Shown one piece after another: positions 10,807 to 34,178 of a stretch of 64,000 nucleotides of DNA. A model generated the notes under the pieces. It was not told the origin of the DNA. It did not search any database and saw only the letters and a list, made by a program, of their open reading frames with translations. Source of the stretch: Thermoanaerobaculia bacterium (GTDB lineage Bacteria; Acidobacteriota; Thermoanaerobaculia; Gp7-AA8); the NCBI GenBank assembly GCA_035525285.1, contig DATLFB010000120.1:53149-117148 (forward strand), read 5' to 3'. The translations under genes and the position numbers were made by a program. Numbering within the stretch: the stretch's first letter is position 1; every line of letters starts with the position of its first letter.

Positions 10807-11669
10807 GACGGCGCAAGCCGGTCTCGCCCGAGCTCCTGAAGGCACGCCTCGACACGCTCGTCACGACGTTCGACGTCTCGACGATCGAGCCCGACCCGCT
10901 GCAGCTCGTGCTGCGCTTCCGCGATCCGCTCGATCAGGAAGTGGCTGGACTGATCGCCGCCGCATTCGCGTACGGCCGCGCGGACATCATCGTCGCGAAC
11001 ATCGGCGCGGTGCTCGCGAAGATGACGCCGTCGCCGTATCGCTATCTCGCATCGTTCGATCGTCGCGAAGCGAGTCGCCGCTTCGCGAGCTTCGCGCATC
11101 GCTTCCACAAGACTCCCGAGCTCGTCGCGTTGTTCGCCGCGCTCGCGAACGCGATCCGCGAGCACGGCTCGCTCGGCGCGCTGTTCGAAACGTGCTACGA
11201 CGCGAGTGATGACGACATCGGACCTTCGCTCGCACGATTCGTCGAGTCAGTGGCGGGCGGACGTCCCGTCCGCCATCGTGGGGCGGACGGGACGTCCGCC
11301 CTCCTTACTTCCCCCAACGACGGCTCCGCCTGCAAGCGCATGAACCTCTTCCTCCGCTGGATGGTGCGCCGCACGCCGCCCGACGTCGGCCTCTGGACCT
11401 TCGTCGATCCTGCGAAGCTCGTGATGCCGCTCGACACGCACATCCACCGCATCGCGACCTTCCTCGGCCTCAACGACCGCGCGACCGCCGACTGGAAAGC
11501 CGCCCGCGCGATCACCGACCGGCTCGCCCGCTTCGACGCCGCCGATCCCGTTCGCTACGACTTCGCCCTCTGCCGCCTCGGCATCCTCGATCTCTGCAGC
11601 CGCAAGCGGCGCAGGGAGAACTGCGACGTGTGTTTGTTGCGCGATGCGTGCAGGTTTCCGATGACCTGA
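10803..11669 (+). CDS. TIGR02757/DUF2400 family protein
   Basis: ORF-length conserved hypothetical; the TIGR02757/DUF2400 assignment rests on overall resemblance only. It carries an in-frame family A repeat at 11252-11304 (…AGGRPVRHRGADGTSALL…). Confidence 0.55.
   Translation: MRRRKPVSPELLKARLDTLVTTFDVSTIEPDPLQLVLRFRDPLDQEVAGLIAAAFAYGRADIIVANIGAVLAKMTPSPYRYLASFDRREASRRFASFAHRFHKTPELVALFAALANAIREHGSLGALFETCYDASDDDIGPSLARFVESVAGGRPVRHRGADGTSALLTSPNDGSACKRMNLFLRWMVRRTPPDVGLWTFVDPAKLVMPLDTHIHRIATFLGLNDRATADWKAARAITDRLARFDAADPVRYDFALCRLGILDLCSRKRRRENCDVCLLRDACRFPMT
11252..11304. repeat. Family A repeat in-frame inside the DUF2400 CDS
   Basis: GGCGGGCGGACGTCCCGTCCGCC-atcgtgg-GGCGGACGGGACGTCCGCCCTCC. 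Confidence 0.8.
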
Positions 11670-11726
11670 GGAGGGCGGACGTCCTCGTCCGCCCCGCACG
11701 AGAGGCGGACGAGACGTCCGCCCTCC
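11669..11726. repeat. Family A repeat immediately after the DUF2400 stop (terminator-like position)
   Basis: GGAGGGCGGACGTCCTCGTCCGCC…GGCGGACGAGACGTCCGCCCTCC. Confidence 0.8.
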
Positions 11727-14686: not shown

Positions 14687-16092
14687 AAATCCTGATCGTC
14701 GACGATGAAGAAGTCCTTCGGGACGTCCTCGACGCCGTCTTACGGCGCGAGGGATTCGACGTCGTCACGGCGGCGAGCGGCGAAGAAGCGCTGAGCGTGC
14801 TCGACGGCGACGGGGAAGTCGACCTGGTCGTGCTCGACGTCATGCTGCCCGGCATCAGCGGCATCGACACCCTGCGCGCCATCCGCATCGCGAACCCCAC
14901 GCTCCCGGTCATCGTCATCACCGCCTTCTCGTCGATCGACGGCGCGATCGAGGCGATGAAGCAGGGCGCCTTCCACTACATCCCCAAGCCGTTCAAGAAC
15001 GAGGAAGTCGTTCTCACGGTGAACAAGGCGCTCGAGCAGCGCCGCCTCTCGTATGAGAACGAACGCCTCAAGGCCGAGCTTTCGGAGAAGTACGCGTACT
15101 CGAACATCATCGGCAAGAGCGAGCCGATGCGAAAAGTGTTCGATCTCATCCGCCTCGCCGCTCCGTCGCGCTCGAACATCCTCATCTTCGGCGAATCGGG
15201 CACCGGCAAGGAGCTCGTCGCGAAGGCCATCCATCACGCGAGCCCGCGCGCGCGCAATGCGTTCGTGACCGTGAACTCCGGATCGCTGCCGCCGGAGCTT
15301 CTCGAGTCGTCGCTCTTCGGACACATGAAGGGCGCGTTCACCGGCGCGATCGCGACCAAGCGCGGGCTCTTCGAAGTCGCCGACGGCGGATCGATCTTCC
15401 TCGACGAGATCGGCAACATCAATCTCGAGACCCAGGCCAAGCTCCTCCGCGTGATCCAGGAAAAAGAGTTCATGCGCCTCGGCTCGGTCGAGACGCTGAA
15501 GGTCGACGTCCGGATCATCGCCGCGACGAACGCCGACCTGCACAAGCTGATGGCGGAGAACCGCTTCCGCGAGGATCTCTACTATCGCCTGAACGTCATC
15601 ACCATCCAGCTCCCGCCCCTGCGCCGCAAGCGCGAAGACATCCCGCTGCTCATCCACCACTTCCTGCAGAAATACTCGGAGGAGAACAAGCGCAAAGTGC
15701 GCGAGGTGACGCCGGACGCGATGCGCATCCTCCTGGACTCCCCGTGGCCCGGCAACGTGCGCGAGCTGGAGAACACCATCGAGCGCGCCGTCGTCCTCTG
15801 CACCGGCGACCGCATCACCCCCGAGCTCCTCCCCGACTACCTCCGCTACCCGATGCGCAGCGACCAGCCCGCGATGGTCGTCCCCGCCGAAGGCCTCTCC
15901 CTCAAGGACGCCGTCTCCGCCTACGAGCGAACGATGATCCTGCAGTCCCTCGAGATCGCAAACGGAGTCCAGAAACGCGCCGCCGAGCTCCTGCAGGTGA
16001 AGCCGTCCACGCTGAACGAGATGATGAAACGCCTCGGCATCCACGCGAAGTCGAACGCGATCGTCGAAGACGAAGTGGCGGTCAACGAGTAG
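14683..16092 (+). CDS. Sigma-54-dependent response regulator (NtrC family: REC, AAA+ and Fis-HTH domains)
   Basis: MKILIVDDE; GESGTGKE Walker A; GAFTGA motif; C-terminal HTH. ATGA start/stop overlap with the upstream kinase. Confidence 0.9.
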
Positions 16093-16099
16093 GGGACCG

Positions 16100-16262
16100 T
16101 CAACCTTGAAAGCATGCGTGGCCAGCCTTGTCATCCCGAGCGTGAGCGAGGGACCCGGGTGGGCGGCGGCGCGACCCGCGGGCTTGTGCCACCCTACCCC
16201 CGGGTCCCTCGCTCACGCTCGGGATGACAAGCCTTGGTACCTACGCTTTCAATGTTGAATGT
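16100..16262. repeat. Family D MITE-like palindromic element (long form, about 160 bp): …TGTCATCCCGAGCGTGAGCGAGGGACC…GGTCCCTCGCTCACGCTCGGGATGACA…
   Basis: Nested inverted repeats with outer arms ACCTTGAAAGCATGCGTGGCCAGCCTTG / CAAGCCTTGGTACCTACGCTTTCAATGTTGAATG; located after the NtrC gene. Confidence 0.85.
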
Positions 16263-16295
16263 CCAGTCGGGCGAACCTCAGGAGTTCGCGCCACC

Positions 16296-19310: not shown

Positions 19311-19367
19311 GAAGGGCGGACGTCCCGTCCGCCAAACGGGGGGGGCGGACGAGACGTCCGCCCTCCT
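19311..19367. repeat. Family A repeat after the M14 carboxypeptidase stop
   Basis: Half-sites around a G-run spacer. Confidence 0.8.
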
Positions 19368-20214: not shown

Positions 20215-21684
20215 ATGCGCGTCGTCTTCGCCACTGCCGAGGTGTCCCCGATCGCCAAAACGGGCGGGCTCGGCGACGTGTGCGGCTCGCTGCCGAAAGC
20301 GCTTCAGGCACTCGGACATGACGTCGTGGTCTTCATGCCCTTCTATCGCCAGGCGCGGCAATGGTTCGAGAAGAGCGGCGCGGACGTGCATCAGCTGATG
20401 CCGACGATCGTGATCCCGTGGGCGAACTGGGTGGCCGAGGCGACGTTTCTGCGGGTGAACCTGCCGGGAACGGACATCCCCCTGGTCATGGTCGCGAACG
20501 ATTACTTCTTCGAGCGCGATCACATTTACTCCGATGCGCCGGACGGCTGGCACGACTACCTGCTGCGCTACACCTTCTTTCAGCGCGCGATCGTTCGCGC
20601 CTGCGAGCTGCTCGACCTCCGTGTCGACCTGCTGCACTGCCACGACTGGCACACCGCGCTGCTGCCGCTCTATCTCGACTCCGGATTACGCGTTAGTCCG
20701 CAGTTCGCGAACACGCGCTCGGTGTACACGATCCACAACCTCAACTACCAGGGCGTCGCCGGATGGGACGCGCTCAGGCTCACGGGACTGCATCACCGCT
20801 ACTGGGCGCCCGATGCGCTCGAGCATTTCGGCACTCTGAATCCGATGAAGGGCGCGATTCTCTTCGCCGATCAGGTCACGACCGTTTCGCCGAACTACGC
20901 GAACGAGATCCGCGGCCCGCAGCTCGGCGCGGGACTCGACGGCGTGCTGCGCGCGATGTCGTACAAGCTCACCGGAATCCTGAACGGCATCGACGCCGAC
21001 GAGTGGGATCCCGCGACGGACACGCACCTCCGCGCGAACTACGACGCGCTCACGCTGCGCGAGAAAACGCGCAACAAACGCGCGCTCGCGAAAGAGGCAG
21101 GGCTGCCGTTCTCCGCGAAGAAGCCGATCATCGGCGCCGTCTCGCGCCTCGTCGAGCAGAAGGGCTTTCAGCTTCTCACGCCCGTGCTCAGGCAGATGCT
21201 CGACGCCGGCGCGCAAGTGGTCCTCCTCGGCAGCGGCGAGTCGCGCATCGAGAACGCGCTGCTGACGCTCGCGGAGCAGAATCCCGACCGCTGCAAAGTC
21301 TGGATCGGTTTCGACACCGCGCTCGCACACCGCATCTACGCCGGCGCGGACATGCTCCTCGTGCCGTCGATCTACGAGCCGGGCGGACTCAATCAGATGT
21401 ACGCGCTGCGCTACGGCACGATCCCGATCGTGCGCCTCACCGGCGGCCTCGCCGACACGGTGATTCCGTTCGACGGCACGAACCTCGAGCGCGCGAACGG
21501 CTTCGGCTTCATCGCCGCGCATCCGCTCGAGCTCTATCTCTCGACCTGGCTGGCGATGCTGAACTTCAAGGACGCGGGCACGTGGAAGACGCTGCAGACG
21601 AACGGCATGGATGAGGACTTTTCATGGGAGCGCTCGGCGAGGCAATACGATGACATCTACCGAAAAGCGCGCGGCGTACGCTAA
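20215..21684 (+). CDS. glgA: Glycogen synthase (ADP-glucose type, GT5)
   Basis: N-terminal AEVSPIAKTGGLGDV motif; 489 aa. Confidence 0.9.
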   Translation: MRVVFATAEVSPIAKTGGLGDVCGSLPKALQALGHDVVVFMPFYRQARQWFEKSGADVHQLMPTIVIPWANWVAEATFLRVNLPGTDIPLVMVANDYFFERDHIYSDAPDGWHDYLLRYTFFQRAIVRACELLDLRVDLLHCHDWHTALLPLYLDSGLRVSPQFANTRSVYTIHNLNYQGVAGWDALRLTGLHHRYWAPDALEHFGTLNPMKGAILFADQVTTVSPNYANEIRGPQLGAGLDGVLRAMSYKLTGILNGIDADEWDPATDTHLRANYDALTLREKTRNKRALAKEAGLPFSAKKPIIGAVSRLVEQKGFQLLTPVLRQMLDAGAQVVLLGSGESRIENALLTLAEQNPDRCKVWIGFDTALAHRIYAGADMLLVPSIYEPGGLNQMYALRYGTIPIVRLTGGLADTVIPFDGTNLERANGFGFIAAHPLELYLSTWLAMLNFKDAGTWKTLQTNGMDEDFSWERSARQYDDIYRKARGVR

Positions 21685-22123
21685 GACGTACGATGCGATC
21701 GTCTCGATCTGGAGCGAAGAAGGCGGCGCGACGCTCGATGACATCGCTTTGATGGCGACCATCAACTCGCTCCTCGTGCATCGTTTCAACTACTTCTTCT
21801 GGACCGGCTTCTACCGCGTCTGCCGCGAAAGGCTCGTCATCGGGCCGTACATCGGCACGGTCGGCTGTCTGCAGATCGAGTTCGGCCGCGGCGTCTGCGG
21901 CATGGCGGCGGAGAAACGCGAGACGATCATCGTGCCGGACGTGAATCAGTTCCCCGGACACATCGCCTGCGATCCGAATTCGAAATCCGAGATCGTGGTG
22001 CCCGTGTTCGATCGCGACCAGCAGCTCATCGGCGTGCTCGACGTCGACTCGGTTCTGCCCAATGCGTTCGACGACGAGGATCGCACGGGGCTGGAGAGGA
22101 TCGTCACGCTCTTCATGAAGTGA
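21650..22123 (+). CDS. GAF-domain protein (free methionine-R-sulfoxide reductase-like)
   Basis: FFWTGFYRV...PYIGTVGCLQIEFGRGVCG...SEIVVPVF, an fRMsr-type GAF. Confidence 0.65.
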   Translation: MTSTEKRAAYAKTYDAIVSIWSEEGGATLDDIALMATINSLLVHRFNYFFWTGFYRVCRERLVIGPYIGTVGCLQIEFGRGVCGMAAEKRETIIVPDVNQFPGHIACDPNSKSEIVVPVFDRDQQLIGVLDVDSVLPNAFDDEDRTGLERIVTLFMK

Positions 22124-22130
22124 CGTAGCG

Positions 22131-22556
22131 CCCGGCTTCAGCCGGGCGGCTTCGGCCGGCTGAAGCCGGCGCATCCGCCGACTTTCAGTCGGCGATGACG
22201 AAGCGCGGACAGGATGTCCGCGGAACGGCGGCCTGGAAGGCCGCGCTACTCACGACGTGTAGCGCGGGCCTCCGGCCCGCCGTATCGCCGGCTTCCAGCC
22301 GGCGGAAGGGGGAACCGCCGATCGGAGATTGGCGGACCGGCCGACTGGAAGCCGGCGTTCCGTCATGCGGGCGCCGCGTCCGCTGTGACGACGGGCGCGT
22401 TGCGCACGATCGGCGGTGGGCGTGACGCCGTCACCTCGCGCTCGTGTAGGTCCCGCATCGCGGCGACGACGCCGTGCCGCTTGTCCGGCCGGAACGCCGA
22501 TTTTCAATCGGCCGGTCCGCCGACTTTCAGTGGGCGATTGGCTGGCTATTAATATT
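22131..22556. repeat. Family F: 430 bp intergenic array of at least 8 different short GC-rich hairpins (6-8 bp stems, TTC/TCC/GGA loops) between convergent GAF and MerR genes
   Basis: GCTTCAGCCGG/CCGGCTGAAGC; CCGACT-TTC-AGTCGG; CGGACA-GGA-TGTCCG; CGCGCTAC…GTAGCGCG; GCCGGCT-TCC-AGCCGGC; CCGATT-TTC-AATCGG. Confidence 0.75.
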
Positions 22557-22575
22557 AATAAAGCCGGCCGCTACG

Positions 22576-22965
22576 TTACTCCAGCATCGCGAGAATCGCG
22601 CGCAGTTCTTTCCGCACGTCGGCGAGTGCCTTCGTCAGGTCTGTTGCCGCGGCCGTCTCCGCGACCGGCCCGCTCAGCTCCGTCTCGAGCTTCTTTTTCG
22701 CGCCCGCGATCGTGAAGCCATCGCGATAGAGGAGCTCCTTGATGCGCAGGATCGTGTCGATCTCCTGGCGCGTGTAGAGCCGCTGGCCGCCTCCGCTTTT
22801 CCCCGGCGCGAGCTGCGGGAACTCGGTTTCCCAGTAGCGCAGCACGTAGGGCTGCACGTCCGCGAGCTTGCAGACTTCGCCGATCTTGTAGAGCTTCTCG
22901 TCCTGTGCCGCCGCGGCCACGCCTCGATTATAGGCGTGATGACAATCACCACCTCGTGTGCGCAC
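22576..22965 (-). CDS. MerR-family transcriptional regulator, divergent from hypF. The true start is probably internal at about 22920
   Basis: [27 protein letters not shown]; short coiled-coil C-terminus. Confidence 0.7.
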
Positions 22966-23005
22966 TGTGGCAGCGGCGCACCGCCGCGCCGCCTACCTTT
23001 GGCGC

Positions 23006-25351
23006 ATGCCTCTCGTTGGCCGGCACATCGAAATTCGCGGCGTCGTACAGGGCGTCGGATTTCGCCCGTGGGTCTATCAGCTCGCCACGCGTGAAGGCGT
23101 CGCAGGACGCGTGCACAACGATTCGCGCGGCGTGGTCATCGACGCGTTCGGGACCGCCGAGGCGATCGAGAACTTCACGCTCGACCTCGGCAAGAGCATG
23201 CCCGTCACCGCGCGCGTACGCGAGATCGACTGGCAGTCGATTCCGTACGAGCCCGTCACCGGCTTCGCGATCGTCGCCAGCGCGCGCGCGGGCGAGCGCA
23301 ACATCTCCATTCCGCCCGATCTCGCCACCTGTCCCGAATGCCTCGACGAGATCTTCGATCCGAACGACCGGCGTTATCTCTATCCCTTCACCAACTGCAC
23401 GCACTGCGGCCCGCGCTACACGATCGTGCGCGACGTTCCCTACGACCGTGGCAACACGACGATGGAATCGTTCGTCATGTGCGCCGGCTGCCGGCGCGAG
23501 TACCACGATCCGCTCGACCGCCGCTTTCACGCCCAGCCGAACGCGTGTCCCGCGTGCGGACCGAAGCTCACCGCGTTGCGGCCGAACGGCCGCGAGATCG
23601 TGACCCACTCGCCGATCCGCTTCGTCGCGCGCGCGCTGAAGGCCCATCTCATCGTCGCCGTGAAAGGTCTCGGCGGATTTCATCTCGCCTGCGACGCGAT
23701 GTCATCGCTCGCGATCAATCGCCTGCGCGAGCGGAAGCGCCGCGAGGCCAGGCCGCTCGCGATCATGGTGCGCGACCTCGCGCAGGCCGAGGAGCTCGCC
23801 GATCTGACGAACGCGGAGCGCGCGCTGCTCGCATCGGTCGAGCGTCCGATCGTGCTCGTGCGCCGCCGCCGTTCCACGCTTCCCGACGAGATCGCGCCCG
23901 GAAGCCCGCTGGTCGGACTCTTTCTGCCGTACACGCCGCTGCATCACATCCTGTTGCGCGAGTGCGGCATCCCGCTGGTGATGACCTCGGGCAACGTCTC
24001 CGACAACCCGATGTGCACGAGCAACGACGACGCGCTCGACTCGCTGTCGGAGATCGCCGATCTCTTCCTGATGCACGACCGAAATATCGAAACGCGCGCC
24101 GATGACTCGGTCACGCGCGTGATCGCCGGCGCGCCGATGATCATGCGCCGCGCACGCGGCTACGTCCCGCGCGGCGTGGAGTTGAAGCGCGCGTTCGCCG
24201 AGCCGGTCCTCGCCGTCGGCGCACATCTGAAGAACGCGATCTGCATCGGCGCAGGTAAGCAAGCCTTCCTCGGCCCGCACGTCGGCGATCTCTTAACGCT
24301 CGAGACGGAGGTGGCTTTCGAACAGAGCATCGAGCAGATGAAGAAGTTCGTGGGCGTCGACCCGAAAATCATCGCGCACGATCTGCATCCGGATTACGCC
24401 AGCACTCACTGGGCGGAGGACAGGCGATCTCGCCTGTCCGGACAGGCAGGATTGCCTGTCCTCCACACCATCGCCATCCAACACCACCACGCGCATGTCG
24501 TGAGCGCGATGGCCGAGCACGGCCTCGACGGCACGGCGATCGGCGTCGCGTACGACGGCACCGGCTACGGCACCGACGGCACCTCGTGGGGCGGCGAGAT
24601 CCTCATCGCGAGCTTCACCGGCTTCGAGCGCTTCGCAACCTTCCGTCCCATCGCGCTCGCCGGCGGCGATCAGGCCATCCGCCAGGTGTGGCGCATTGCG
24701 CTCGCGTTGCTCGACGACGCCTTCGACGGTACTCCGCCGCTGCATGCGCTGCCGCTCTTCCGCATGCTCGAGCGTCCGGCGATCGAATCGATCCGCCGCA
24801 TGATCGCGAACAACGTCAACACGCCCCGCGCCCGCGGCGTCGGCCGCTACTTCGACGCCCTCGGCGCAATTGGACTCGCCATGCCGGTCGCGCGCTTCGA
24901 AGGCGAAATCGCGATGGCATGGAACAACGTCGCCGACCCGCTCGAGCACGGCCGCTACGAAGTCGTCGTGCGCGACGGCGTCACGCCATGGGAGATCGAT
25001 CCGCGCCCGATGATCAAGAGCGCCGTGCTCGAGCTCCTGCGCGGCGTCTCGCTCCCGACCATCTCCGCACGCTTCCACAACACGATCGCCGCGGCGACCG
25101 TCGAAGTCGTGCGCGCGGCAACCGCCACGCACGGCAACCTCCCGATCGTCCTCACCGGCGGCTGCTTCCAGAACGCGCTGCTCGCGGAGTCGGTCCTCAA
25201 ACGTCTTCCGCGTGCGTACATCATTCGAAGCATTCCCCCAGGCGACGGTGGCATCGCGCTAGGCCAAGCCGTGATCGCCGATGCCCTTCACCGGGAAGCC
25301 GGGCAACCGGGAAACCGGGAAGCCGGGCGGGAGGTAACAACATGTGCCTAG
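23006..25351 (+). CDS. hypF: Carbamoyltransferase HypF ([NiFe]-hydrogenase maturation)
   Basis: Acylphosphatase domain (EIRGVVQGVGFRPWVY); two CxxC...CxxC zinc fingers (CPECLDE...CTHCGPRY; CAGCRRE...CPACGP); YrdC and Kae1-like domains. Carries in-frame family B (24414-24468) and family C (25289-25331) repeats. Confidence 0.9.
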   Translation: MPLVGRHIEIRGVVQGVGFRPWVYQLATREGVAGRVHNDSRGVVIDAFGTAEAIENFTLDLGKSMPVTARVREIDWQSIPYEPVTGFAIVASARAGERNISIPPDLATCPECLDEIFDPNDRRYLYPFTNCTHCGPRYTIVRDVPYDRGNTTMESFVMCAGCRREYHDPLDRRFHAQPNACPACGPKLTALRPNGREIVTHSPIRFVARALKAHLIVAVKGLGGFHLACDAMSSLAINRLRERKRREARPLAIMVRDLAQAEELADLTNAERALLASVERPIVLVRRRRSTLPDEIAPGSPLVGLFLPYTPLHHILLRECGIPLVMTSGNVSDNPMCTSNDDALDSLSEIADLFLMHDRNIETRADDSVTRVIAGAPMIMRRARGYVPRGVELKRAFAEPVLAVGAHLKNAICIGAGKQAFLGPHVGDLLTLETEVAFEQSIEQMKKFVGVDPKIIAHDLHPDYASTHWAEDRRSRLSGQAGLPVLHTIAIQHHHAHVVSAMAEHGLDGTAIGVAYDGTGYGTDGTSWGGEILIASFTGFERFATFRPIALAGGDQAIRQVWRIALALLDDAFDGTPPLHALPLFRMLERPAIESIRRMIANNVNTPRARGVGRYFDALGAIGLAMPVARFEGEIAMAWNNVADPLEHGRYEVVVRDGVTPWEIDPRPMIKSAVLELLRGVSLPTISARFHNTIAAATVEVVRAATATHGNLPIVLTGGCFQNALLAESVLKRLPRAYIIRSIPPGDGGIALGQAVIADALHREAGQPGNREAGREVTTCA
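24414..24468. repeat. Family B repeat in-frame in hypF
   Basis: Translated as EDRRSRLSGQAGLPVLH. Confidence 0.85.
25289..25331. repeat. Family C repeat (inverted runs of 9-mer GTTGCCCGG / CCGGGCAAC-like units), in-frame at the hypF 3' end
   Basis: gggaagccgggcaaccgggaaaccgggaagccgggcggg. Confidence 0.7.
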
Positions 25352-25617
25352 GCGTCCCTGGCCGCGTCGTCTCCATCGAAGGCAGCATGGCCACTGTCGA
25401 TTTCTGGGGCATTCGCCGGCAGGTCTGCCTCGACATCTGCGACGAGCTCGTCGCACCCGGCGACTACATCCTCAACCACGTCGGCTTCGCCATCCGCCGC
25501 ATCCCGCCCGAGACGATCGCCGAGACCCTCTCGCTTTATGAAACGCTCATGCTCGAAGCGGAAGACGACGCCATGGCCGCGGACGTGCGCGGCGAGATCG
25601 AGGCAGCGCGTGAGTGA
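25342..25617 (+). CDS. hypC: Hydrogenase maturation chaperone HypC
   Basis: Starts MCLGVPGRVV (conserved N-terminal Cys2); 91 aa. Confidence 0.85.
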   Translation: MCLGVPGRVVSIEGSMATVDFWGIRRQVCLDICDELVAPGDYILNHVGFAIRRIPPETIAETLSLYETLMLEAEDDAMAADVRGEIEAARE

Positions 25618-26728
25618 GCTCAAGTTCCGCGACCCCGCGATGGCGCGGCATCTCGCGGAGACGCTTGTGCGGCTGATCGACGAGATTGGCCGCAAGGTCG
25701 CGGTCATGCACGTCTGCGGCTCGCACGAGCAGGCGATCGCGAAATTCGGTCTGCGCTCGCTCTTCCCCAAAAATCTCGAAGTGATCATGGGACCGGGATG
25801 CCCGGTCTGCGTCACGGACGTCCCCGAGGTCGACGAAGGCGTCGTGCTTGCGCGCGACGGCGTGCGCATCGCCACGTACGGCGACATGCTCAGAGTGCCC
25901 GGCACCGTGCAGTCCCTCGCGGACGCGCAGGCGAGCGGCGCGAAGATCGACATCATCTACTCCCCTTCGCAGGTCGTCGACATCGCGAAGAGCACGGACG
26001 AGGAAGTCGTCTTCTTCGCGACCGGATTCGAGACCACCGCCGTCGCCACGGCCGCGATCATCACCAGCGATCCGCCGAAGAACCTTTCCGTGCTTTCGGC
26101 GCACAAGTACATCCCGCCGGTGATGGAGATCGTGAGCGAGATGCCGGAGTCGCGCGTGGAAGGATTCCTCGCCGCCGGCCACGCCGCGACGATCACGGGA
26201 TGGGCGGTGTTCGAGCCGTTCGTCGAGCGCCATAAAGTGCCCGTCGTCGTCGCCGGCTTCGAGCCGCTCGACATCCTCGCGGGACTCGTCGAGCTGGTCA
26301 CGCTCATCCGCGACAAGGAAGCGAGAGTCGTGAACACCTTCCCGCGCTGCGTCACGCGCGAAGGCAACCTTCCCGCGCAGGAACAGCTCTGGCGCGTGTT
26401 CAAAACGATCGGCGGGCGCTGGCGCGGCATCGCGCACGTGCCGAACGGCAATCTCCGCCTGCGCGATGAATGGGCGCACGTCGACGCGCGCAAGCGCTTC
26501 AGGATCGACGTGACGTCGCTGTGGGATTACGCGCCGCCGCACCTCGCGCATCAGTGCATCTGCGGCGACATCATGGCCGGCATCCGCAACCCGGTCGACT
26601 GCAAGCTGTTCAACCGCGAGTGCACGCCCGAGAACCCCGTCGGCGCCTGCATGGTCTCGAACGAAGGCACATGCAAGATCTGGCATCTGTACGGTGGAGT
26701 CCCTGATCTCTCCGAGGTGGCGGTATGA
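25610..26728 (+). CDS. hypD: Hydrogenase maturation protein HypD. GTG start at 25610 is inferred from overlap with the hypC stop
   Basis: CGSHEQAI, GPGCPVC and FEPLD...CxxxC motifs. Confidence 0.85.
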   Translation: MSELKFRDPAMARHLAETLVRLIDEIGRKVAVMHVCGSHEQAIAKFGLRSLFPKNLEVIMGPGCPVCVTDVPEVDEGVVLARDGVRIATYGDMLRVPGTVQSLADAQASGAKIDIIYSPSQVVDIAKSTDEEVVFFATGFETTAVATAAIITSDPPKNLSVLSAHKYIPPVMEIVSEMPESRVEGFLAAGHAATITGWAVFEPFVERHKVPVVVAGFEPLDILAGLVELVTLIRDKEARVVNTFPRCVTREGNLPAQEQLWRVFKTIGGRWRGIAHVPNGNLRLRDEWAHVDARKRFRIDVTSLWDYAPPHLAHQCICGDIMAGIRNPVDCKLFNRECTPENPVGACMVSNEGTCKIWHLYGGVPDLSEVAV

Positions 26729-27810
26729 GTGCACAAACAACAGTGGAGGACAGGCGATCCCGCCTGTCCGGGCAGGCAGGATTGCCTGCCCTCCACGGCC
26801 GCGTCACCCTCAAACAGGGCGGCGGCGGCCGCGCCATGCGCGCCCTCATCGAGAAACTCTTCGTCCGCGAGTTCGCCGCCATGCCCTTCGATGGCGTCGG
26901 CCTTGCGGCGATGGACGACGGTGCCGCAATCCCGATCGGCAGCGAATGGCTCATCGTCACGACCGACTCGCACGTCATCCACCCGATCTTCTTCCCCGGC
27001 GGCGACATCGGCCGCATCTCGATCAGCGGCACGGTGAACGATCTCGCGATGATGGGCGCGACGCGCCTCCTCGGCATCACCTGCGGTCTGATCCTCGAGG
27101 AAGGCTTTCCGCTCGACCAGCTCGAAAGGGTCCAGCGCTCGCTCGTCGACACCTGCATCGAGGCCGGCACGCTCGTCATCACCGGCGACACGAAAGTCAT
27201 GGGCCGCGGCGAGATCGACGGCATCGTGATCAACACGACCGGCGTCGCGCTCGCGAAGCGCGTGGTGCGCGACAACGGACTGCGCGCCGGCGACCGCATC
27301 GTCGTCACCGGCACGATGGGCGACCACGGCCTCGCGGTCATGTCCGCGCGGCACGGGCTGCAGCTCGAAGGCGATCTCGTCTCCGACGTCGCTCCGATTC
27401 ACTCGCTCATCGCAACGGTCCTCGAGGCGATGCCGGAGGCGATCACCGCGATGAAGGACCCGACGCGCGGCGGCCTGTCCTCCGCGCTGCACGAGATGGC
27501 GCAGAAGAGCAACGTTGGCATCATCCTCGAGGAGCGCAACGTGCCCGTCACCGACGCCGTTCGCGCCGCCGGCGAGATCCTCGGCATCGATCCGCTGCAC
27601 GTGGCGAACGAAGGAAAAGCGGTGATCGGCGTGCGTGCGGAAGATGCGGAGCGCCTCGTCGCCCTGCTGCGCGCGCATCCGCTCGGCCGCGATGCGGCGA
27701 TCGCCGGCACCTGCATCGCCGAGCGGCCGGGCGGAATCATTCTCGACACGGGATTCGGACGGAGGCTGCTGGCGGAGCCGGAAGGCGAGCCGCTGCCGCG
27801 CATATGCTGA
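26725..27810 (+). CDS. hypE: Hydrogenase maturation protein HypE (carbamoyl dehydratase)
   Basis: PurM-like fold; C-terminal ...PRIC terminal cysteine. A family B repeat encodes residues about 6-23. Confidence 0.9.
   Translation: MSAQTTVEDRRSRLSGQAGLPALHGRVTLKQGGGGRAMRALIEKLFVREFAAMPFDGVGLAAMDDGAAIPIGSEWLIVTTDSHVIHPIFFPGGDIGRISISGTVNDLAMMGATRLLGITCGLILEEGFPLDQLERVQRSLVDTCIEAGTLVITGDTKVMGRGEIDGIVINTTGVALAKRVVRDNGLRAGDRIVVTGTMGDHGLAVMSARHGLQLEGDLVSDVAPIHSLIATVLEAMPEAITAMKDPTRGGLSSALHEMAQKSNVGIILEERNVPVTDAVRAAGEILGIDPLHVANEGKAVIGVRAEDAERLVALLRAHPLGRDAAIAGTCIAERPGGIILDTGFGRRLLAEPEGEPLPRIC
26743..26796. repeat. Family B repeat in-frame at the hypE N-terminus
   Basis: Translated as VEDRRSRLSGQAGLPALH. 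Confidence 0.85.
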
Positions 27811-28490
27811 ACATCGGCGTCCTCTGCTCGCGCCGCGCGCCCGGCCTCGATGTGCTGCTCGCGCATGGGAGGGCGGACGTCTCGTCCGCCGCCGTGGGGC
27901 GGACGGGACGTCCGCCCTCCTTCGAGATCGGCTGCGTCATCGCCACGCATCCCGGCACTCCGTACCTCACCCGTCCCGTCTTCTCGCCGCGCCGCGAGTA
28001 CGACGCCGGGACGCGCGACCTCCTCCGCGCCGCCGGCACGGATCTCGTCCTGCTCCTCGGCTACACGTACATCGTCACCGACACGCTGCTCTACGAATAT
28101 CCGATTCTCAACATCCACGACAGCGATCTGCGCATCACGCGTCCCGACGGCGAGCGCCGCTACACCGGCCTCCACTCCACGCGCGACGCGATCCTCGCGG
28201 GCGAGAAGGAAACGCGCTCGACGCTTCACGTCGTCACGGACAAGCTCGACGGCGGACCGATCATCAGCGTGAGCCGCGCCTATCCGGTCGCGCCATTCGT
28301 TCACGATGCCGCGAAGGCAGGCTACATGGACATCGTGAGGGCGTACGCCTACGCGCAGCGCGAATGGATGATGCGCGACTCGTGGGGCGAGATGCTCGTC
28401 GCGGCGCTGAGCAATGGAGGGCGGACGTCCCGTCCGCCCAACGTAGGCGGACGAGACGTCCGCCCTCCTCATGCGGAGGCGGCCGCATGA
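27804..28490 (+). CDS. hypX: HypX N-terminal domain as a separate ORF (formyl-THF-dependent formyltransferase fold)
   Basis: Fmt/PurN-like ILNIHDSDL...DAILAGEKETRSTLHVVTDKLDGGPII. Two in-frame family A repeats at 27867-27920 and 28416-28470. Ends with a TGA that overlaps the ATG of the crotonase ORF. Confidence 0.6.
   Translation: MLNIGVLCSRRAPGLDVLLAHGRADVSSAAVGRTGRPPSFEIGCVIATHPGTPYLTRPVFSPRREYDAGTRDLLRAAGTDLVLLLGYTYIVTDTLLYEYPILNIHDSDLRITRPDGERRYTGLHSTRDAILAGEKETRSTLHVVTDKLDGGPIISVSRAYPVAPFVHDAAKAGYMDIVRAYAYAQREWMMRDSWGEMLVAALSNGGRTSRPPNVGGRDVRPPHAEAAA
27867..27920. repeat. Family A repeat in-frame in the hypX N-domain
   Basis: Encodes …GRADVSSAAVGRTGRPPS…. Confidence 0.8.
28416..28470. 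repeat. Family A repeat at the hypX N-domain/C-domain junction
   Basis: Encodes …GGRTSRPPNVGGRDVRPP… and ends 17 nt before the ATGA junction. Confidence 0.8.
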
Positions 28491-29266
28491 CGCACATCGT
28501 CACGCACGTCGACGGCGCCGTCGGGGTCATCACCATCGACCGGAAGGAGCGCTTCAACTCGCTCGACGTCGACACCGCGCGCGATCTCCGCAAGGCGGGA
28601 CTCGCGTTCGCGCGCGATGCGAACGTGCGCGCGGTTGTGCTTCGCGGCGCGCACGGCATCTTCTGCAGCGGCGCCGATCTGAAGTACATTTGGGCCGCGG
28701 AAGCGAGTTACGGCGACACCTTCCAGCAGATCCTCGAATACATTCACTCCACGATCTCCGAGATCCGCCGCGCGCCGAAGCCCTTCATCGCGGCAGTCGA
28801 CGGCGTCGCCGCCGCGGGCGGGTTCGGTCTGGCGATGTCGTGCGATCTCGTCGTCGCGTCCGAGCGCGCGTGGTTTGAGTGGGCGTATGCGAAGACGGGC
28901 CTCACCGGCGCGGAGAGCTCGACGTTCATGCTCCCGCGCCTGATCGGCCTCCGCCGCGCGATGGAACTGCTCTTTCTGAATCCGCGGCTCGATGCGCATC
29001 GCGCGCTCGACTACGGACTGATCACCGCGGTCTCGCCCATCGAGACCTTCGACGACGACGTGATGGCGATGGCGCGGAAACTGTCCGAGGGGCCGACGGA
29101 GGCGCTGGGCATCGCCAAGGATCTGATCAATCAGGCCTCCGGCATGGACCGGCTCGACTACCACCTCGATCGCGAGCTCGACCAGCTCGCGCGCATCGCG
29201 AACGGGAAAAACGTTGCGGAGGGGCTGAGCGCATTCTTCGAGAAGCGCGCGCCGCAGTTCACATGA
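28487..29266 (+). CDS. hypX: HypX C-terminal domain as a separate ORF (enoyl-CoA hydratase/crotonase fold)
   Basis: Crotonase signature GVITIDRKERFNSLD...CSGADL...AAVDGVAAAGGFGLAMSCD. Start overlaps the upstream stop (ATGA). Confidence 0.6.
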   Translation: MTHIVTHVDGAVGVITIDRKERFNSLDVDTARDLRKAGLAFARDANVRAVVLRGAHGIFCSGADLKYIWAAEASYGDTFQQILEYIHSTISEIRRAPKPFIAAVDGVAAAGGFGLAMSCDLVVASERAWFEWAYAKTGLTGAESSTFMLPRLIGLRRAMELLFLNPRLDAHRALDYGLITAVSPIETFDDDVMAMARKLSEGPTEALGIAKDLINQASGMDRLDYHLDRELDQLARIANGKNVAEGLSAFFEKRAPQFT

Positions 29267-29934
29267 CACTCCTCGCATTGATGATCACCGCCGCGACCGT
29301 CGGCGCGCTGCACTCCCTCGCGCCCGACCACTGGCTTCCGTTCGCCGCGCTCGCCCGCGCCCGCAACTGGACGCCGCTGCGCACCTCGCGTCTCGCCTTT
29401 CTCTGCGCCCTCGGACACGTGACCGTTTCCGCGCTCTTCGGCGTGCTCGCGGTGCTCATCGGACGCGAGGCCGTCGAGGCCTTCGGAACGACGCTGCAAT
29501 CGGGTGCGCCGCTTTTGCTCATCGGCTTCGGCTTCGTCTATCTCGTCCTCGCGCTGTGGCGGATCTCCCGCGGAAAGCTCCTGCATCACGTCGATCATCT
29601 CGAAGGCGTCGCGCACGACCACGGACACGGCGCTCATCATCACAGTCACGGGAAGCCGCTGACGGAGATGGGACTCTTCGTGCTGTTCTGTCTCGACCCG
29701 TGCGTCGCGCTCATTCCGATGATCGTCGCGGCATCGACCCTCGGCTGGAACGCCGTCGGCGCGGTCGTGGTGGTGTACGAGATCGCGACGATCAGTGCGA
29801 TCGTCGTGCTCGTGCAGCTCGCGCACGCGGGCGTTCGGAAGATCCGGATGCCGTGGATCGACCGCTACGGCGACGCGGCGGCGGGCGCGTTGATCATTCT
29901 GCTCGGTGCGCTCGTCACAGTCGTGGGTATCTGA
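29263..29934 (+). CDS. Nickel/cobalt permease-like membrane protein (NicO / HupE-UreJ type)
   Basis: HSLAPDHW (H-x4-DH) motif in TM1; His-rich loop HHVDHLEGVAHDHGHGAHHHSHG; 6 TM segments; coupled to the hyp genes. Confidence 0.6.
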   Translation: MTLLALMITAATVGALHSLAPDHWLPFAALARARNWTPLRTSRLAFLCALGHVTVSALFGVLAVLIGREAVEAFGTTLQSGAPLLLIGFGFVYLVLALWRISRGKLLHHVDHLEGVAHDHGHGAHHHSHGKPLTEMGLFVLFCLDPCVALIPMIVAASTLGWNAVGAVVVVYEIATISAIVVLVQLAHAGVRKIRMPWIDRYGDAAAGALIILLGALVTVVGI

Positions 29935-30566
29935 TGGTCACAGATTCGCACGGACATGACCCTTACAACCACCTCATGGACATCGATGCCGCACAACTGA
30001 CGATCCCTCCCCGGCCTGTCGCGGCAGTCGTTTTCGCCACCGCGCCGGCGCTGCCCGACGACCATCGCGATGAAGCGATCGCCAGAGATCTGTACGCCCT
30101 CGGCGTCGCCACGATCCGCGTCCCGCTGCTCACCGTCGGCGAACTGATGACGCCTCTGCGCTCCGACGCCGAGGTTCTCGCCGACCGCTTCATCCTGCTC
30201 ACGCAGTGGATCCGCACGAAACGCGAGGTCGCCGGCATTCCGATCGCACTCGCGGCGTCGAGCTGCGCCGCGGCCGGCGCGATCATCGCCGCCGCGCAAC
30301 AGCCGCAGCTCGCAAGCGCGGTCGTGGCCATCGACGGGCGCACCGACCTCGCGGTCGATGTGCTGCGCGAGCTGCGCACGCCGACGCTCCTCCTCGTGCG
30401 CGACATGCCCGTCCTGCGGATGAACCGCGAGGCGCTGGCGATGATGCGCTGCGAGCGGCGGCTCGAGATCGTGCACGAAGGCAGCGACGCGCTCGCGACG
30501 AAGTGCGTGAACTGGCTCGCGGACAAGTTCGCCCTCGTCCCGGCGGACGCGTACGGGATGGTCTGA
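29934..30566 (+). CDS. Alpha/beta-hydrolase-like protein (dienelactone-hydrolase-like?); last gene of the hyp operon
   Basis: ATG overlaps the upstream stop; AASSCAAAG possible nucleophile elbow; no firm family assignment. Confidence 0.4.
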   Translation: MVTDSHGHDPYNHLMDIDAAQLTIPPRPVAAVVFATAPALPDDHRDEAIARDLYALGVATIRVPLLTVGELMTPLRSDAEVLADRFILLTQWIRTKREVAGIPIALAASSCAAAGAIIAAAQQPQLASAVVAIDGRTDLAVDVLRELRTPTLLLVRDMPVLRMNREALAMMRCERRLEIVHEGSDALATKCVNWLADKFALVPADAYGMV

Positions 30567-30572
30567 CGCGAA

Positions 30573-30668
30573 TGTCATCCCGAGCATAGCGAGGGACCTG
30601 GGCGGCTGGGGGGCGCGATCATCGAGCCACCCGCCCACACAGGTCCCTCGCTGACGCTCGGGATGACA
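30573..30668. repeat. Family D MITE-like element (core form)
   Basis: TGTCATCCCGAGCATAGCGAGGGACC…GGTCCCTCGCTGACGCTCGGGATGACA; between the convergent hyp operon end and the Cys-rich gene. Confidence 0.85.
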
Positions 30669-30673
30669 AACGC

Positions 30674-31180
30674 TCAGTACACCGTCGTACTCGGCCGCAG
30701 CGTCGAACGCGCTTCGGCGATCCGCTTCCGCTCGATCACCATCTCGGGATGATCGTGGCGGAACGACTCGACGATGTGGCAGACGAAGCAGACCGGCTGC
30801 GCGCTCGCGAAGACCGCCGGCAGCTCTTCCGCCGCGATCTCCTTCCACTCGCGCGTCGTGCCGTCCGCGAAGCGCACCGCGGGCGGACGCTCATGCCAGA
30901 CGATCTCGCCGATCGGTTTCGCGCAGAACGTGCAGCTCCTGCCTGCGTACCATGACGCGACGATCGACTGCACGAGGCACTCGCGCGGCGAAGCCTCGAT
31001 CTGCGCGAGGCACTCCTGTCCGCAGCCCGCCTTCTCCGGCCAGCGCGTGCAGGAGCGGAGATGCAGGTCGGGACGCGAGTCCCACAATGCGACGCGCACG
31101 GCCGCCGCGTTCCGATTTTCCGGGCAGGTAATCACCCGTACTCCGCGATACGTGCGCAGTCTCTTCAGAAACTCGAGCAT
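30674..31180 (-). CDS. Cysteine-rich hypothetical protein (about 10 Cys, possible metal/Fe-S binding)
   Basis: ITCPEN...SCTRW...GCGQEC...REC...SCTFC...CFVC cysteine clusters. Confidence 0.4.
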   Translation of the reverse strand: MLEFLKRLRTYRGVRVITCPENRNAAAVRVALWDSRPDLHLRSCTRWPEKAGCGQECLAQIEASPRECLVQSIVASWYAGRSCTFCAKPIGEIVWHERPPAVRFADGTTREWKEIAAEELPAVFASAQPVCFVCHIVESFRHDHPEMVIERKRIAEARSTLRPSTTVY

Positions 31181-31246: not shown

Positions 31247-31348
31247 GAAGTGATGTAGCGCGGGCATCCTGCCCGCCGTCGCGCCGGCTTCCAGCCGGCG
31301 CGGAGAAGCGGGCGCGGGACGCCCGCGATACGGCGGGCTGGAAGCCCG
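31247..31348. repeat. Family F hairpin cluster (shares the GCCGGCT-TCC-AGCCGGC and GTAGCGCGGGC…GCCCGCGCTAC modules with 22131-22556)
   Basis: Between waaF and the Cys-rich gene. Confidence 0.7.
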
Positions 31349-31358
31349 CGCTACACGC

Positions 31359-32390: not shown

Positions 32391-34083
32391 GCATGACTTC
32401 GCTTTCTCCCGTCCCTTTCCAGCGATCGTGCATCCACAGCCAGAGCTCCGGACGAGAGTGGATGCGGCGCGCGATCACGTCGTTGATTCGCTTCGTCAGC
32501 ACCACCGGGTCTCTCTCGCCCTCTGCCAGCTCGTCTACACGGATCGGCTCCTCGAATTCGAGACGATGCCTGAGCCCGTCGGGAATGCAAAAACCGAACA
32601 CAATTGTAGAGTCGCCCTTGAGCGCCATTCGCGCGGGCGCCGGAGTGGTCCACGCGGGACGGCCGAGGAACGGGACGAGGACTCCTTCGCGCGGCTGCAC
32701 GGCCTGGTCGGGAAGCAGCGCCACGACGCCGTTTCCGGCGAGGCTTTTCATGAGGAAGCGCGCGGCCCGCCGGCGGTCGATGACCTCCGCGCCGGTGCGC
32801 TCGCGCAGCCGCTGCAGATCGCGCTCGAGAAACTCGTTGTCGAGCGGACGCGCGACGCTGCGCACGTTGCGGAGAAGCGCCATCACCGCGAGGCCGCCGA
32901 TCTCCCATCCGCCCCAGTGCCCGCTCATGAGCAGCGTCCCTTTGCCGCGCGCGATCGCCTCTTCGAGATGGTGCACATTGACCAACGGGCAGCGCTCCGC
33001 GATCTGCTCGAGCGAGAAACTCTGCATCTGCACGTACAGCAGCATCTCGCGTCCGAAGTGGCGCCAGCACTTCGCGAGGATCTCGCGCAGCTCCTCGTCG
33101 CTTCGCCGCGGAAACGCGCCGCGCAGATTGCGCATGGCCAGCCGCGTGCGGCGGCGAAGCACGATGCCCGCGAGCGCGCCGAGGCGCGTTCCCCAGCGGT
33201 AGACGGCTTCCTCGGACGCCGGCTTCACCGCGCGCACGACCAGGCGATAGACCGCGTACTCGAGACGCTGCAGCAGCGGATTCTTGCGGCGTTTGCGCTT
33301 GCGCTGCTCCGGCGCGGTCGCGGCGGCAGCGATCCTCTCGAGCACGTCCGCGTCGATGTCGAACTCCGCGGGGATGGCGGTGATCGCCTTCTCGTCGATC
33401 TTTACCGCGTCTTTCTCCGTCGTCACGATGCGCGCGTCGCCCGCGGCGCGCTGGATCGCCTCGAGGTCGGCCTTCGTGTACGGGTGATGATCGGGAAAGC
33501 TCTTCGTGCCGGTGAGATGCACTCCTTCGAGCGCGCGGAAGAACTGCTCGTTGTCCGCGAGTCCCGCGAAAGCGAAGACGCGCTGTCCGCGCAACTCCTC
33601 GGGCACCAGCGTGCGCAGCCGGCGCGGGATAACGATGTGTGCATCGCGCAGCGCGGCGTGGCCCTCGCGATGGAAGCGCGCCGGCGCGTCGATCACGACG
33701 TCGAGATCGCGGTGGAGCTGGAGATGCTGGAAGCCGTCGTCGAGCACAAAAGCGTCGACATAATGCGACTTTAAATAGTGCTTCGCATTATCGTATCGAT
33801 TTTTACCAATCAATACATCGCATTTAGTCTGCCGCTTTATCAGCTCCGGTTCATCGTTTGTTTTATAGCCACGCGTTAACACGACAACGCGCAGACCGCG
33901 CTCTGTGAGAAAGCGGCAGATCGCGATCACGGCCGGCGTCTTTCCCGCCCCGCCCACGGAGATGTTGCCGACCGAGATCACCGGACGCGCGAGGCGCTTT
34001 CGCTTCAGCACGCCGCGGCGGTACAGCGCGCGGCGCGCGCGATTGAGGCCGCGGTAGAGCAGCTCCAGAGGTTTGAGTAATGT
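32380..34083 (-). CDS. lpxK: Fused tetraacyldisaccharide 4'-kinase (LpxK) and lipid A lauroyl/myristoyl acyltransferase (LpxL/HtrB-like)
   Basis: N-terminal half: VISVGNISVGGAGKTP (LpxK P-loop), with the start MTLLKPLELLYRGL inside the family D MITE terminus. C-terminal half: LPLAT acyltransferase (MSGHWGGWE). A continuous ORF on the six-frame track. Confidence 0.65.
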   Translation of the reverse strand, partial: TLLKPLELLYRGLNRARRALYRRGVLKRKRLARPVISVGNISVGGAGKTPAVIAICRFLTERGLRVVVLTRGYKTNDEPELIKRQTKCDVLIGKNRYDNAKHYLKSHYVDAFVLDDGFQHLQLHRDLDVVIDAPARFHREGHAALRDAHIVIPRRLRTLVPEELRGQRVFAFAGLADNEQFFRALEGVHLTGTKSFPDHHPYTKADLEAIQRAAGDARIVTTEKDAVKIDEKAITAIPAEFDIDADVLERIAAAATAPEQRKRKRRKNPLLQRLEYAVYRLVVRAVKPASEEAVYRWGTRLGALAGIVLRRRTRLAMRNLRGAFPRRSDEELREILAKCWRHFGREMLLYVQMQSFSLEQIAERCPLVNVHHLEEAIARGKGTLLMSGHWGGWEIGGLAVMALLRNVRSVARPLDNEFLERDLQRLRERTGAEVIDRRRAARFLMKSLAGNGVVALLPDQAVQPREGVLVPFLGRPAWTTPAPARMALKGDSTIVFGFCIPDGLRHRLEFEEPIRVDELAEGERDPVVLTKRINDVIARRIHSRPELWLWMHDRWKGTGESEVMHGV

Positions 34084-34178
34084 CATTCCGAGCGAGAGCG
34101 AGGAACCCGGGCGGGTGTGCGGCGCGATCATCGCGCCTCCCGCCCACCCGGGTCCCTCGCTCTCGCTCGGGATGACAT
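34081..34178. repeat. Family D MITE-like element (core form) at the waaA stop / lpxK start
   Basis: TGTCATTCCGAGCGAGAGCGAGGAACC…GGTCCCTCGCTCTCGCTCGGGATGACA. Confidence 0.85.

Follow-up and report, generated by a model that had tools for sequence, protein, structure and literature searches.

What is a 452-nt block of closely packed hairpins doing between two convergent genes, and how did it come to be there? The question is raised by a stretch of 64,000 nucleotides from a Thermoanaerobaculia bacterium (contig DATLFB010000120.1, positions 53,149 to 117,148; hereafter the window), in which an array of short GC-rich palindromes at 22124-22575 fills exactly the gap between the stop codons of a GAF-domain gene and a MerR-family regulator gene. 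A preliminary description of the window had suggested a system of repetitive extragenic palindromes (REPs) mobilised by a REP-associated tyrosine transposase (RAYT). Our reading, to which we give a probability of about 0.8, is that the array is a cluster of RAYT-type REP elements resembling the bacterial interspersed mosaic elements (BIMEs). We favour it because hairpins are in large excess, the array folds with z scores near -11, the units share a common architecture, copies are dispersed, relatives lack the array, and the same units are found beside RAYT genes in other genomes.

How unusual is the array? It contains eight perfect hairpins (stem of at least 7 bp, here 7-9 bp, and a loop of 2-3 nt), where 2000 dinucleotide-preserving shuffles gave a mean of 0.22 and a maximum of 3. 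It is the densest of all 452-nt stretches in a window that averages 0.55 hairpins per 452 nt, and its folding compared with shuffles gives z = -11.0 as RNA and -11.7 as DNA. Four imperfect units accompany the perfect ones, three of them paired at 6/7 (22317, 22340 and 22514) and the fourth (22540-22574) having an AT-rich loop. The preliminary description had counted at least eight hairpins with different stems at 22131-22556, had quoted several from there and from 31247-31348, and had remarked on recurrent loops of the TCC/TTC/GGA type. The count holds, the quoted hairpins are all present where it placed them, and among the hairpins of the window with three loop nucleotides on a stem of 7 bp or longer, 49 in all, 31 have the loop TCC/GGA, TCT/AGA or TTC/GAA. 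In the outermost unit on the right a 14-nt palindrome consisting only of A and T, ATTAATATTAATAA at 22548-22561, takes the place of the TCC loop, in a genome that is 66% G+C in the window. An independent Logan contig of 1.3 kb, found through the 157-aa GAF protein, reproduces the left junction and ends 22 nt inside the array.

The units follow one plan. Oriented so that the loop reads TCC, each runs from a 5-nt head through a 7-bp stem fitting GCNGRCN and a loop of TCC, TTC or TCT to the returning stem. The first two stem pairs are invariably G-C and C-G; the fourth is G-C, and the sixth C-G, in 14/16 units each. The stems, described earlier as different in sequence from hairpin to hairpin, are not arbitrary, and all fit GC-N-G-R-C-N with compensatory changes: positions 3, 5, 6 and 7, four of the seven pairs, change on both sides together across the array, the cluster at 31255 and the window's family A repeats. 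Within the set used for covariation 98% of stem cells are paired, a figure that is partly circular because the set was preselected for pairing at 6/7 or better; the number of pair types is free of this circularity. Twenty-three cells show double changes, and the observed score was reached by none of 500 shuffles.

The heads are less uniform. At least three types occur in the window: GGAGG in family A (and, as GTGGAGG, in family B), GTAGC, and GGAAC/GGTCC. GTATC, GTTCC and CATCC are weaker heads, found on the second hairpins of doublets. The canonical guide of REPs is GT[AG]G; GTAGC is in the minority here and heads four of the twelve array units, at 22125, 22249 (minus), 22259 and 22574 (minus), and two further units at 31255 and 31354.

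Most array units are contained in 46-nt double units, built as head, hairpin, 6 nt and second hairpin, with starts 23 nt apart. Double unit 22204-22249 is inverted with respect to 22259-22304 across a 9-nt spacer, as is 22317-22361 with respect to 22491-22535 across a unique interior of about 129 nt, and 22132-22148 forms a further inverted pair with 22153-22169. The interior, 22362-22490, has no other copy among all the sequences that we compared, and its overlapping open reading frames (ORFs) have no Pfam match. The array thus offers the short palindromes of REPs, as twelve units of 16-35 nt, together with the clusters and inverted doublets of BIMEs and of REPINs (REP doublets forming hairpins), and all family A elements are likewise inverted doublets. 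Dispersed copies are also found, 37 units with GC stems in 64 kb or 5.8 per 10 kb, versus 0.5-1.5 per 10 kb in the corresponding loci of syntenic relatives. The unit pattern has 15 exact matches in the window against 0 expected.

Was the array always there? In three relatives whose GAF proteins are 76-82% identical to that of the window (loci L199, L201 and L203) the convergent GAF and MerR genes are kept and the array is absent; the two genes overlap by 21 nt in L199 and L203 and lie 9 nt apart in L201. The 20-kb loci of these relatives hold almost no units of the array type, and no RAYT gene was found in them. Since three relatives lack the array and have a near-zero spacer, the array is, by this comparison of sequences, a derived, lineage-specific insertion set exactly between two stop codons. 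The class of unit is nevertheless present in the lineage, as GGAGC-GCGGGCG-TC[CT] inverted doublets occur in loci of other Thermoanaerobaculia metagenome-assembled genomes (MAGs; L079, L082 and L095). In L203 the MerR gene (10499-10861) contains a GTAGC-headed doublet (GCGCGCC-TCC-GGCGCGC) at 10563-10618, in frame and close to its 3' end, and gains a net 10 residues from it relative to the MerR protein of the window; the same MerR gene end has therefore been struck independently in another lineage.

The preliminary description had viewed the array as a possible nursery in which new units arise or accumulate. Units do accumulate in it, but the idea that they originate there finds no support. 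A derived insertion that three relatives lack does not suit that idea, nor do the resemblances among the units. The best-conserved unit, 22258-22304, is identical at 43/47 positions to 31254-31300, 9 kb away, and only 74% complementary to its inverted neighbour, which points to the arrival of dispersed copies, not to local birth; and no family A or family B unit lies within 22124-22575. Elsewhere, near-identical REP units form tandem arrays of 4-8 with periods of 30-35 nt directly beside RAYT genes (L161, 2740-2940; L135, 2820-2930; L133, 2848-3800). If any type of locus merits the name of nursery, it is these.

Do units of this kind keep company with RAYT genes more generally? A 22-nt degenerate pattern drawn from family A half-sites and GTAGC units, scanned against one genome per species, matched at least 117 stretches whose record titles name some ten phyla, an approximate number as some MAG bins may be contaminated; most of the matches listed read GGAGCGCGGGCNTCCNGCCCGC, and no one genome dominates them. 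In two among the at least 117 matches listed, L057 and L045, the repeat brackets a RAYT gene, an ORF of about 195 aa. Each protein carries an HuH motif, MPNHVH, and a tyrosine motif, YIExNPVKAGL, and scores above threshold for Pfam Y1_Tnp and for NCBIfam equivalog NF047646, 'REP-associated tyrosine transposase', the latter with 93.9 and 88.8 bits against a cut-off of 80. Homologues of the family at E <= 1e-10 number 7800 or more, and many carry the name RayT. The family's profile matches E. coli TnpAREP, the nearest solved structure (4ER8, E = 8.6e-12), far better than the IS200/IS608 transposases (E ~3e-3).

A scan of metagenomes with an alignment of 24 RAYT proteins brought in 80 further loci (L119-L198). 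A hairpin with a stem of at least 7 bp lies within 300 nt of the RAYT gene in 79/80, mostly with the architecture of head, stem and TCC or TCT loop. By a stricter count, requiring a perfect 7-bp stem and a TCC or TCT loop and made on the 70 loci whose flanks both measure 150 nt or more, a unit is present in 34 and on both sides in 28. Such strict hairpins number 2.13 per kb within 300 nt of the RAYT gene versus 0.06 per kb beyond 1 kb, an enrichment of about 35-fold. Flanking sites chosen by head and loop only (GGNNC-N7-TC[CT]-N7) pair at 6-7 of the 7 positions in 137/281 cases, with a bimodal distribution, and the stem consensus of the flanks, G-C, C-G, N, G-C, R-Y, C-G, N, is that of the window. 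Among perfect 7-3-7 hairpins there, 76% have a TCC or TCT loop, and the head is GGANC in about 120/123.

Several array hairpins recur letter for letter beside RAYT genes. GCCGGCT-TCC-AGCCGGC in L151 is the hairpin of unit 7 (units are numbered as in Table 1), with the head GGGAGC in L151; GCCGGCT-TC-AGCCGGC in L183 and L190 is that of unit 2, headed there by GGAAC; GCGGACA-TCC-TGTCCGC in L122 and L146 is that of unit 4; and GCGGGCC-TCC-GGCCCGC in L120 and L121 is that of unit 6. Unit 8 is comparable with the CGCCAATC-tccc-GATTGGCG units beside RAYT genes in L180, L188 and L191. In L205 the RAYT gene lies between family A half-sites (GGAGG-GCGGACG-TC[CT]-CGTCCGCC); in L142 and L204 such half-sites adjoin the stop codon of the gene, and in L206 they flank it. 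At the level of class, the early suggestion of a REP/RAYT-like system is upheld by these half-sites, by the bracketed RAYT genes of L057 and L045, and by the metagenomic flanks. A family A half-site also occurs in frame inside RAYT genes themselves, translated as ...MADETSAL... (L142, 1354-1376; L204, 318-336; L206, 1563-1581).

What would a RAYT recognise in such units? The preliminary description had supposed that structure is read rather than sequence, which turns out to be half of the matter. Four of the seven stem pairs covary, and at 23/41 loci a single RAYT gene is flanked by at least two distinct stems that differ by compensated changes. On the other hand, sequence conservation in the RAYT flanks covers the GGANC head, the loop and positions 1, 2 and 6 of the stem. 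We propose that the units are non-autonomous elements, which would be cut and rejoined in single-stranded form by a RAYT, an enzyme of the HuH Y1 type whose gene would lie at another place in the genome. The enzyme would read the head and the shape of the hairpin, leaving most stem pairs free to drift by way of compensatory changes. Copies would have landed in the near-zero spacer between the convergent stop codons, where insertions would be harmless, and later copies would have accreted beside units already present. As a side effect both convergent mRNAs would end in stable stem-loops without U-tracts, which would block 3' exonucleases and insulate the two transcripts from one another; an mRNA-stabilising or insulating effect of the array is a plausible prediction.

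A number of points weigh against this account, the partial circularity of the pairing figure among them. The RAYT profile run against all six frames of the window gave only noise (best E = 0.25), with neither a gene nor a remnant, and a tblastn search for RAYT in the window had a best E of 0.71, in agreement with the earlier remark that no HuH or RAYT-type gene lies there. A weak test by tblastn with approximate E. coli YafM and IS200 queries likewise gave only noise in the window, and the same queries flagged the L057 and L045 RAYT genes. The cognate RAYT of the source organism is predicted, and would be encoded outside the 64-kb window. The RAYT loci with exact family A half-sites look alphaproteobacterial and not acidobacterial, the named homologues of the RAYT of L142 belonging to Labrys and other Alphaproteobacteria. 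The second head position is T in 5/12 array units (GTAGC, GTATC, GTTCC) and G in 122/123 RAYT-flanking units, and no GTAG-headed unit was found beside any of the 85 RAYT genes examined, so the GTAGC subfamily may depend on a different RAYT. Accretion beside existing units, like any effect at the level of RNA, is something that we infer. A single mobiliser had been proposed for all the families, and the shared architecture with compensated stems speaks for it; given at least three head types and no GTAG-headed units at RAYT genes, more than one mobiliser is as likely as one.

Might the array instead be the relic of a REPtron, a RAYT gene with its REP flanks, from which the gene was later deleted? 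Arrays of many units with mixed stems are typical of RAYT flanks (L133, L135 and L161, and the 23/41 loci with two or more stems), the outermost array units (22125 plus, 22574 minus) have their heads outward in what is the commoner arrangement at RAYT genes, and loss of a REPtron by deletion has been described in E. coli (PMC3733652). However, the profile search found no RAYT remnant in any frame, the interior 22362-22490 included. Neither the array nor a RAYT gene is present here in the three relatives; the scenario requires an entire REPtron to have come in and its gene to have been lost afterwards, yet REPtrons are believed not to travel as one piece (PMC6006769). We consider such an origin unlikely.

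One might also think of a function in the expression of the two genes. A bidirectional terminator, an insulator or an mRNA-stabilising 3' untranslated region, evolved locally, selected for its function and not mobile, would fit the position between convergent genes and the great stability of the hairpins, and for REPs both stabilisation of upstream mRNA and effects on termination are known (PMC6006769). Like Rho-independent terminators, the units are stable GC-rich stem-loops 3' of stop codons. Unlike terminators, they stand twelve in a row with no T-run (U-tract in the RNA) after any of them, and a scan of 21900-22800 for intrinsic terminators found none in the array, the only site being at 22676, inside the MerR gene. 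Moreover, the relatives do with a spacer of 0-9 nt, and the same units recur elsewhere in the window, inside ORFs, and beside transposase genes across phyla. We regard a locally selected regulatory element as quite improbable, and note that the inserted array may still have gained a function secondarily.

As 17-bp palindromes adjoining a MerR-family gene, the units might bring to mind an array of 7-3-7 operator sites for a DNA-binding protein such as the adjacent regulator. The array, however, is downstream of both genes with no promoter-like site; its half-sites differ by compensatory changes, so that pairing is kept rather than a fixed recognition sequence; and the relatives have the regulator without the array. 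An operator array is therefore very hard to credit. Equally hard to credit is a small gene for a protein or for a structured non-coding RNA: two ORFs, of 112 aa (22214-22552 plus) and 85 aa (22250-22507 minus), do span the region and the predicted structure is strong, yet neither ORF has a Pfam match, both are made of palindromic repeats that are open on both strands, the region is wholly absent in relatives, and the window has no Rfam match at the gathering threshold, the best lesser ones being generic hairpin matches of 17-25 bits against cut-offs of 35-268 bits. A CRISPR-like or simple tandem array was rejected, as only short periodicities of 10-23 nt and 1.9 copies are present.

Table 1. 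Positions of the array, its units and flanking genes, of related repeats in the window, and of the two bracketed RAYT genes (the last two rows use the coordinates of their own loci).
Feature	Position	Strand	Description
GAF-domain gene	21650-22123	+	Left flank; stop TGA 22121-22123
Probable REP cluster, whole	22124-22575		Ends are 15-nt inverted repeats CGTAGCG(C/G)CCGGCTT abutting both stop codons
Unit 1	22125-22148	+	GTAGC-GCCCGGCT-TC-AGCCGGGC; left terminal inverted repeat
Unit 2	22155-22170	-	GCCGGCT-TC-AGCCGGC; without canonical head; inverted partner of unit 1
Unit 3	22172-22193	+	CATCC-GCCGACT-TTC-AGTCGGC
Unit 4	22205-22226	-	GTTCC-GCGGACA-TCC-TGTCCGC; second hairpin of double unit 22204-22249
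Unit 5	22228-22249	-	GTAGC-GCGGCCT-TCC-AGGCCGC; first hairpin of double unit 22204-22249
Unit 6	22259-22280	+	GTAGC-GCGGGCC-TCC-GGCCCGC; first hairpin of double unit 22259-22304
Unit 7	22282-22303	+	GTATC-GCCGGCT-TCC-AGCCGGC
Unit 8	22317-22338	-	GGTCC-GCCAATC-TCC-GATCGGC; 6/7 paired
Unit 9	22340-22361	-	GGAAC-GCCGGCT-TCC-AGTCGGC; 6/7 paired
Unique interior, about 129 nt	22362-22490		Between inverted double units 8-9 and 10-11
Unit 10	22491-22512	+	GGAAC-GCCGATT-TTC-AATCGGC
Unit 11	22514-22535	+	GGTCC-GCCGACT-TTC-AGTGGGC; 6/7 paired; 22/23 identical to 22174-22196
Unit 12	22540-22574	-	GTAGC-GGCCGGCT-(14-nt AT-only palindrome)-AGCCAGCC; right terminal inverted repeat
MerR-family regulator gene	22576-22965	-	Right flank; stop TAA 22576-22578 (minus strand)
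Second cluster	31255-31354		Inverted GTAGC double units, heads outward: 31255-31299 (+), 31333-31354 (-)
Isolated GTAG-headed unit	9528-9551	+	GTAG-GGGCGGGCT-TC-AGCCCGCCC; type of units 1 and 2
Inverted pair	55691-55735	-	GTAGC-GACCGGCT-TC-AGCCGGTC, then GCGGGCT-GA-AGCCCGC; type of units 1 and 2
Family A element	6303-6357		Inverted pair of GGAGG-GCGGACG-TC[CT]-CGTCCGC half-sites
Family A, further copies	68-121, 11252-11304, 11673-11726, 19311-19366, 27868-27920, 28416-28468, 40860-40912, 41995-42042, 54172-54225, 62817-62867		Eleven copies in total in the window
L057 RAYT gene	7097-7693		Repeats at 7074, 7755 and 7794
L045 RAYT gene	about 1517-2107		Repeats at 1479 and 2137

Are all the repeats of the window of one kind? 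The preliminary description had given every repeat family a GC-rich stem with a TCC or GGA tri-loop, which is right for the array, the 31255 cluster and family A, and fails for at least three window families of other architecture. Family B, for which a core with an AGGA loop had been described, parses as a 9-bp stem with a 4-nt ATCC/GGAT loop. The CCCTCTCCCCGC hairpins at 52062, 53626 and 61649 differ in architecture from the units with head, stem and TCC loop. A palindrome of about 100 nt, TGTCATCCCGAGCG...CGCTCGGGATGACA, is a separate family without that architecture, with five copies at 16129-16231, 30572-30670, 34081-34179, 44384-44493 and 56992-57090; the flanks of two copies (16089-16273 and 56952-57132) are about 95% identical over some 40 nt on each side. 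The octamer CCGGGNAA or its complement, which also lacks the head and TCC plan, forms short tandem runs at 25289-25335, 34546-34580, 37761-37855 and 58677-58764, the last two being inverted pairs of arrays.

Repeats are also found within genes. The family A doublet 11252-11306 is in frame within a DUF2400 gene (ORF 10803-11669), where it codes for ...GGRPVRHRGADGTSAL..., and the orthologue in L199, 81% identical, has a 7-residue gap and different residues at that position; a REP has therefore been absorbed into coding sequence. Family B lies inside long ORFs at 2810-2876 (ORF 2666-5662) and 60899-60964 (ORF 57942-62534), translated as GQAGLPVLH, and inside a KdtA-like gene of L199 (14638-14683).

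Two further features of the window may be recorded. Between the MerR and Glyco_transf_9 genes the window has, at 22958-31180, a block comprising hypF, hypD and a hypE-like gene of the AIR-synthase family (22958-27810), followed by about 3 kb that is poorly coding. The block was seen only in the lineage of the window, the two bordering genes adjoining or lying one small ORF apart in L199, L201 and L203, and it terminates at the REP cluster 31255-31354. The segment 49001-50000 is 56.8% G+C versus about 66% elsewhere, in a 2.1-kb stretch where no gene is confidently called; it lies a short way upstream of a DnaB-like gene, close to where cumulative GC skew is lowest. A replication origin in this low-GC patch at 49-50 kb was considered and dropped, as no DnaA boxes were found.

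How does the array compare with known systems? Nunvar reportedly worked on REP elements with RAYT transposases in 2010. REP and REPIN elements together with RAYT (TnpAREP) transposases are known as REPtrons (Bertels & Rainey 2011, PMC3116915; Di Nocera 2013, PMC3733652; Quentin 2018, PMC6006769). Clusters, head-to-head and tail-to-tail dimers, intragenic units and repeat-specific REPtrons are on record (PMC3733652, PMC6006769), as are heads degenerating from GTAG, stems of 5-13 bp, short loops and several REP subfamilies per REPtron (PMC3733652; PMC6006769; PMC3116915; PMC5581495). E. coli TnpAREP is the one RAYT for which cleavage and rejoining of single-stranded REP DNA have been demonstrated (as cited in PMC3733652 and PMC6006769), and REP abundance is tied mainly to RAYT groups 2 and 3, the other groups being reported without abundant REPs (PMC5581495; PMC6006769). 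A search of the literature for six unit sequences verbatim found no paper, nor did we find, in the literature searched, a description of this class of REP or of its guide.

The window's units resemble REPs and REPINs as short GC-rich hairpins with a conserved 5' head, in high copy number, in inverted doublets and clusters, with occasional in-frame intragenic copies, and in other genomes NF047646 RAYT genes have units of this class immediately next to them. They differ in that most heads here are GGANC or GGAGG where GT[AG]G is canonical, in that many are 46-nt double hairpins, in the occurrence of near-identical units in MAGs of about ten phyla where REP families are usually described as lineage-specific, and in that the link to RAYT is known here from the loci of other genomes. 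BIMEs of E. coli are likewise arrays of REP hairpins, about a dozen at most, whose orientation alternates and whose linkers are short; typically they lie at 3' ends of genes and between convergent genes. They are built from a few defined REP types (Y, Z1 and Z2) with defined linkers, and bind IHF and gyrase. Here, in contrast, at least eight stems, several heads and heterogeneous linkers are mixed, and orientation alternates by doublet; the array is BIME-like in organisation and not a member of the E. coli families. With the subterminal hairpins of IS200/IS605 elements the units share a hairpin plus short 5' guide of the sort read as single-stranded DNA by an HuH Y1 enzyme, and the lack of a target-site duplication; unlike those hairpins, they enclose no transposase gene and are far more numerous, and the RAYT profile, as noted above, sides with TnpAREP.

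On the REP reading the array is a fresh example of a well-known selfish DNA and not a new system, because all of its main features have already been described for REPs. Less expected are the GGANC head, the double-hairpin units and the near-identical units in some ten phyla, the last being unusual for REPs. A strikingly structured 452-nt intergenic block is explained in this way as ordinary selfish DNA, and the same explanation accounts for many other repeats of the window and for several odd peptide insertions in annotated proteins. There is a practical side, as such arrays break short-read assemblies (the Logan contig stops 22 nt in) and create spurious ORFs. The loci also amount to a natural experiment on what a RAYT reads: around a single RAYT gene the units keep head, loop and three stem pairs constant, and vary with compensation at the other pairs.

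Could all these units belong together? Tentatively, and with more doubt than confidence, we suggest a REP superfamily spread across about ten phyla, with head GGANC (variant GTAGC), stem GCNGRCN and loop TCC, served by one large clade of RAYTs (MPNHVH, YIExNPVKAGL) that would read the head, three fixed stem pairs and the shape, and would accept any compensated change elsewhere in the stem. If so, several 'families', distinct in nothing but their stem sequence, could be kept up by one enzyme. The near-identical 20-mers found across phyla would then reflect a shared constraint of recognition, or repeated horizontal transfer of the enzyme, and not common descent, and mixed-stem arrays such as 22124-22575 would record successive captures.

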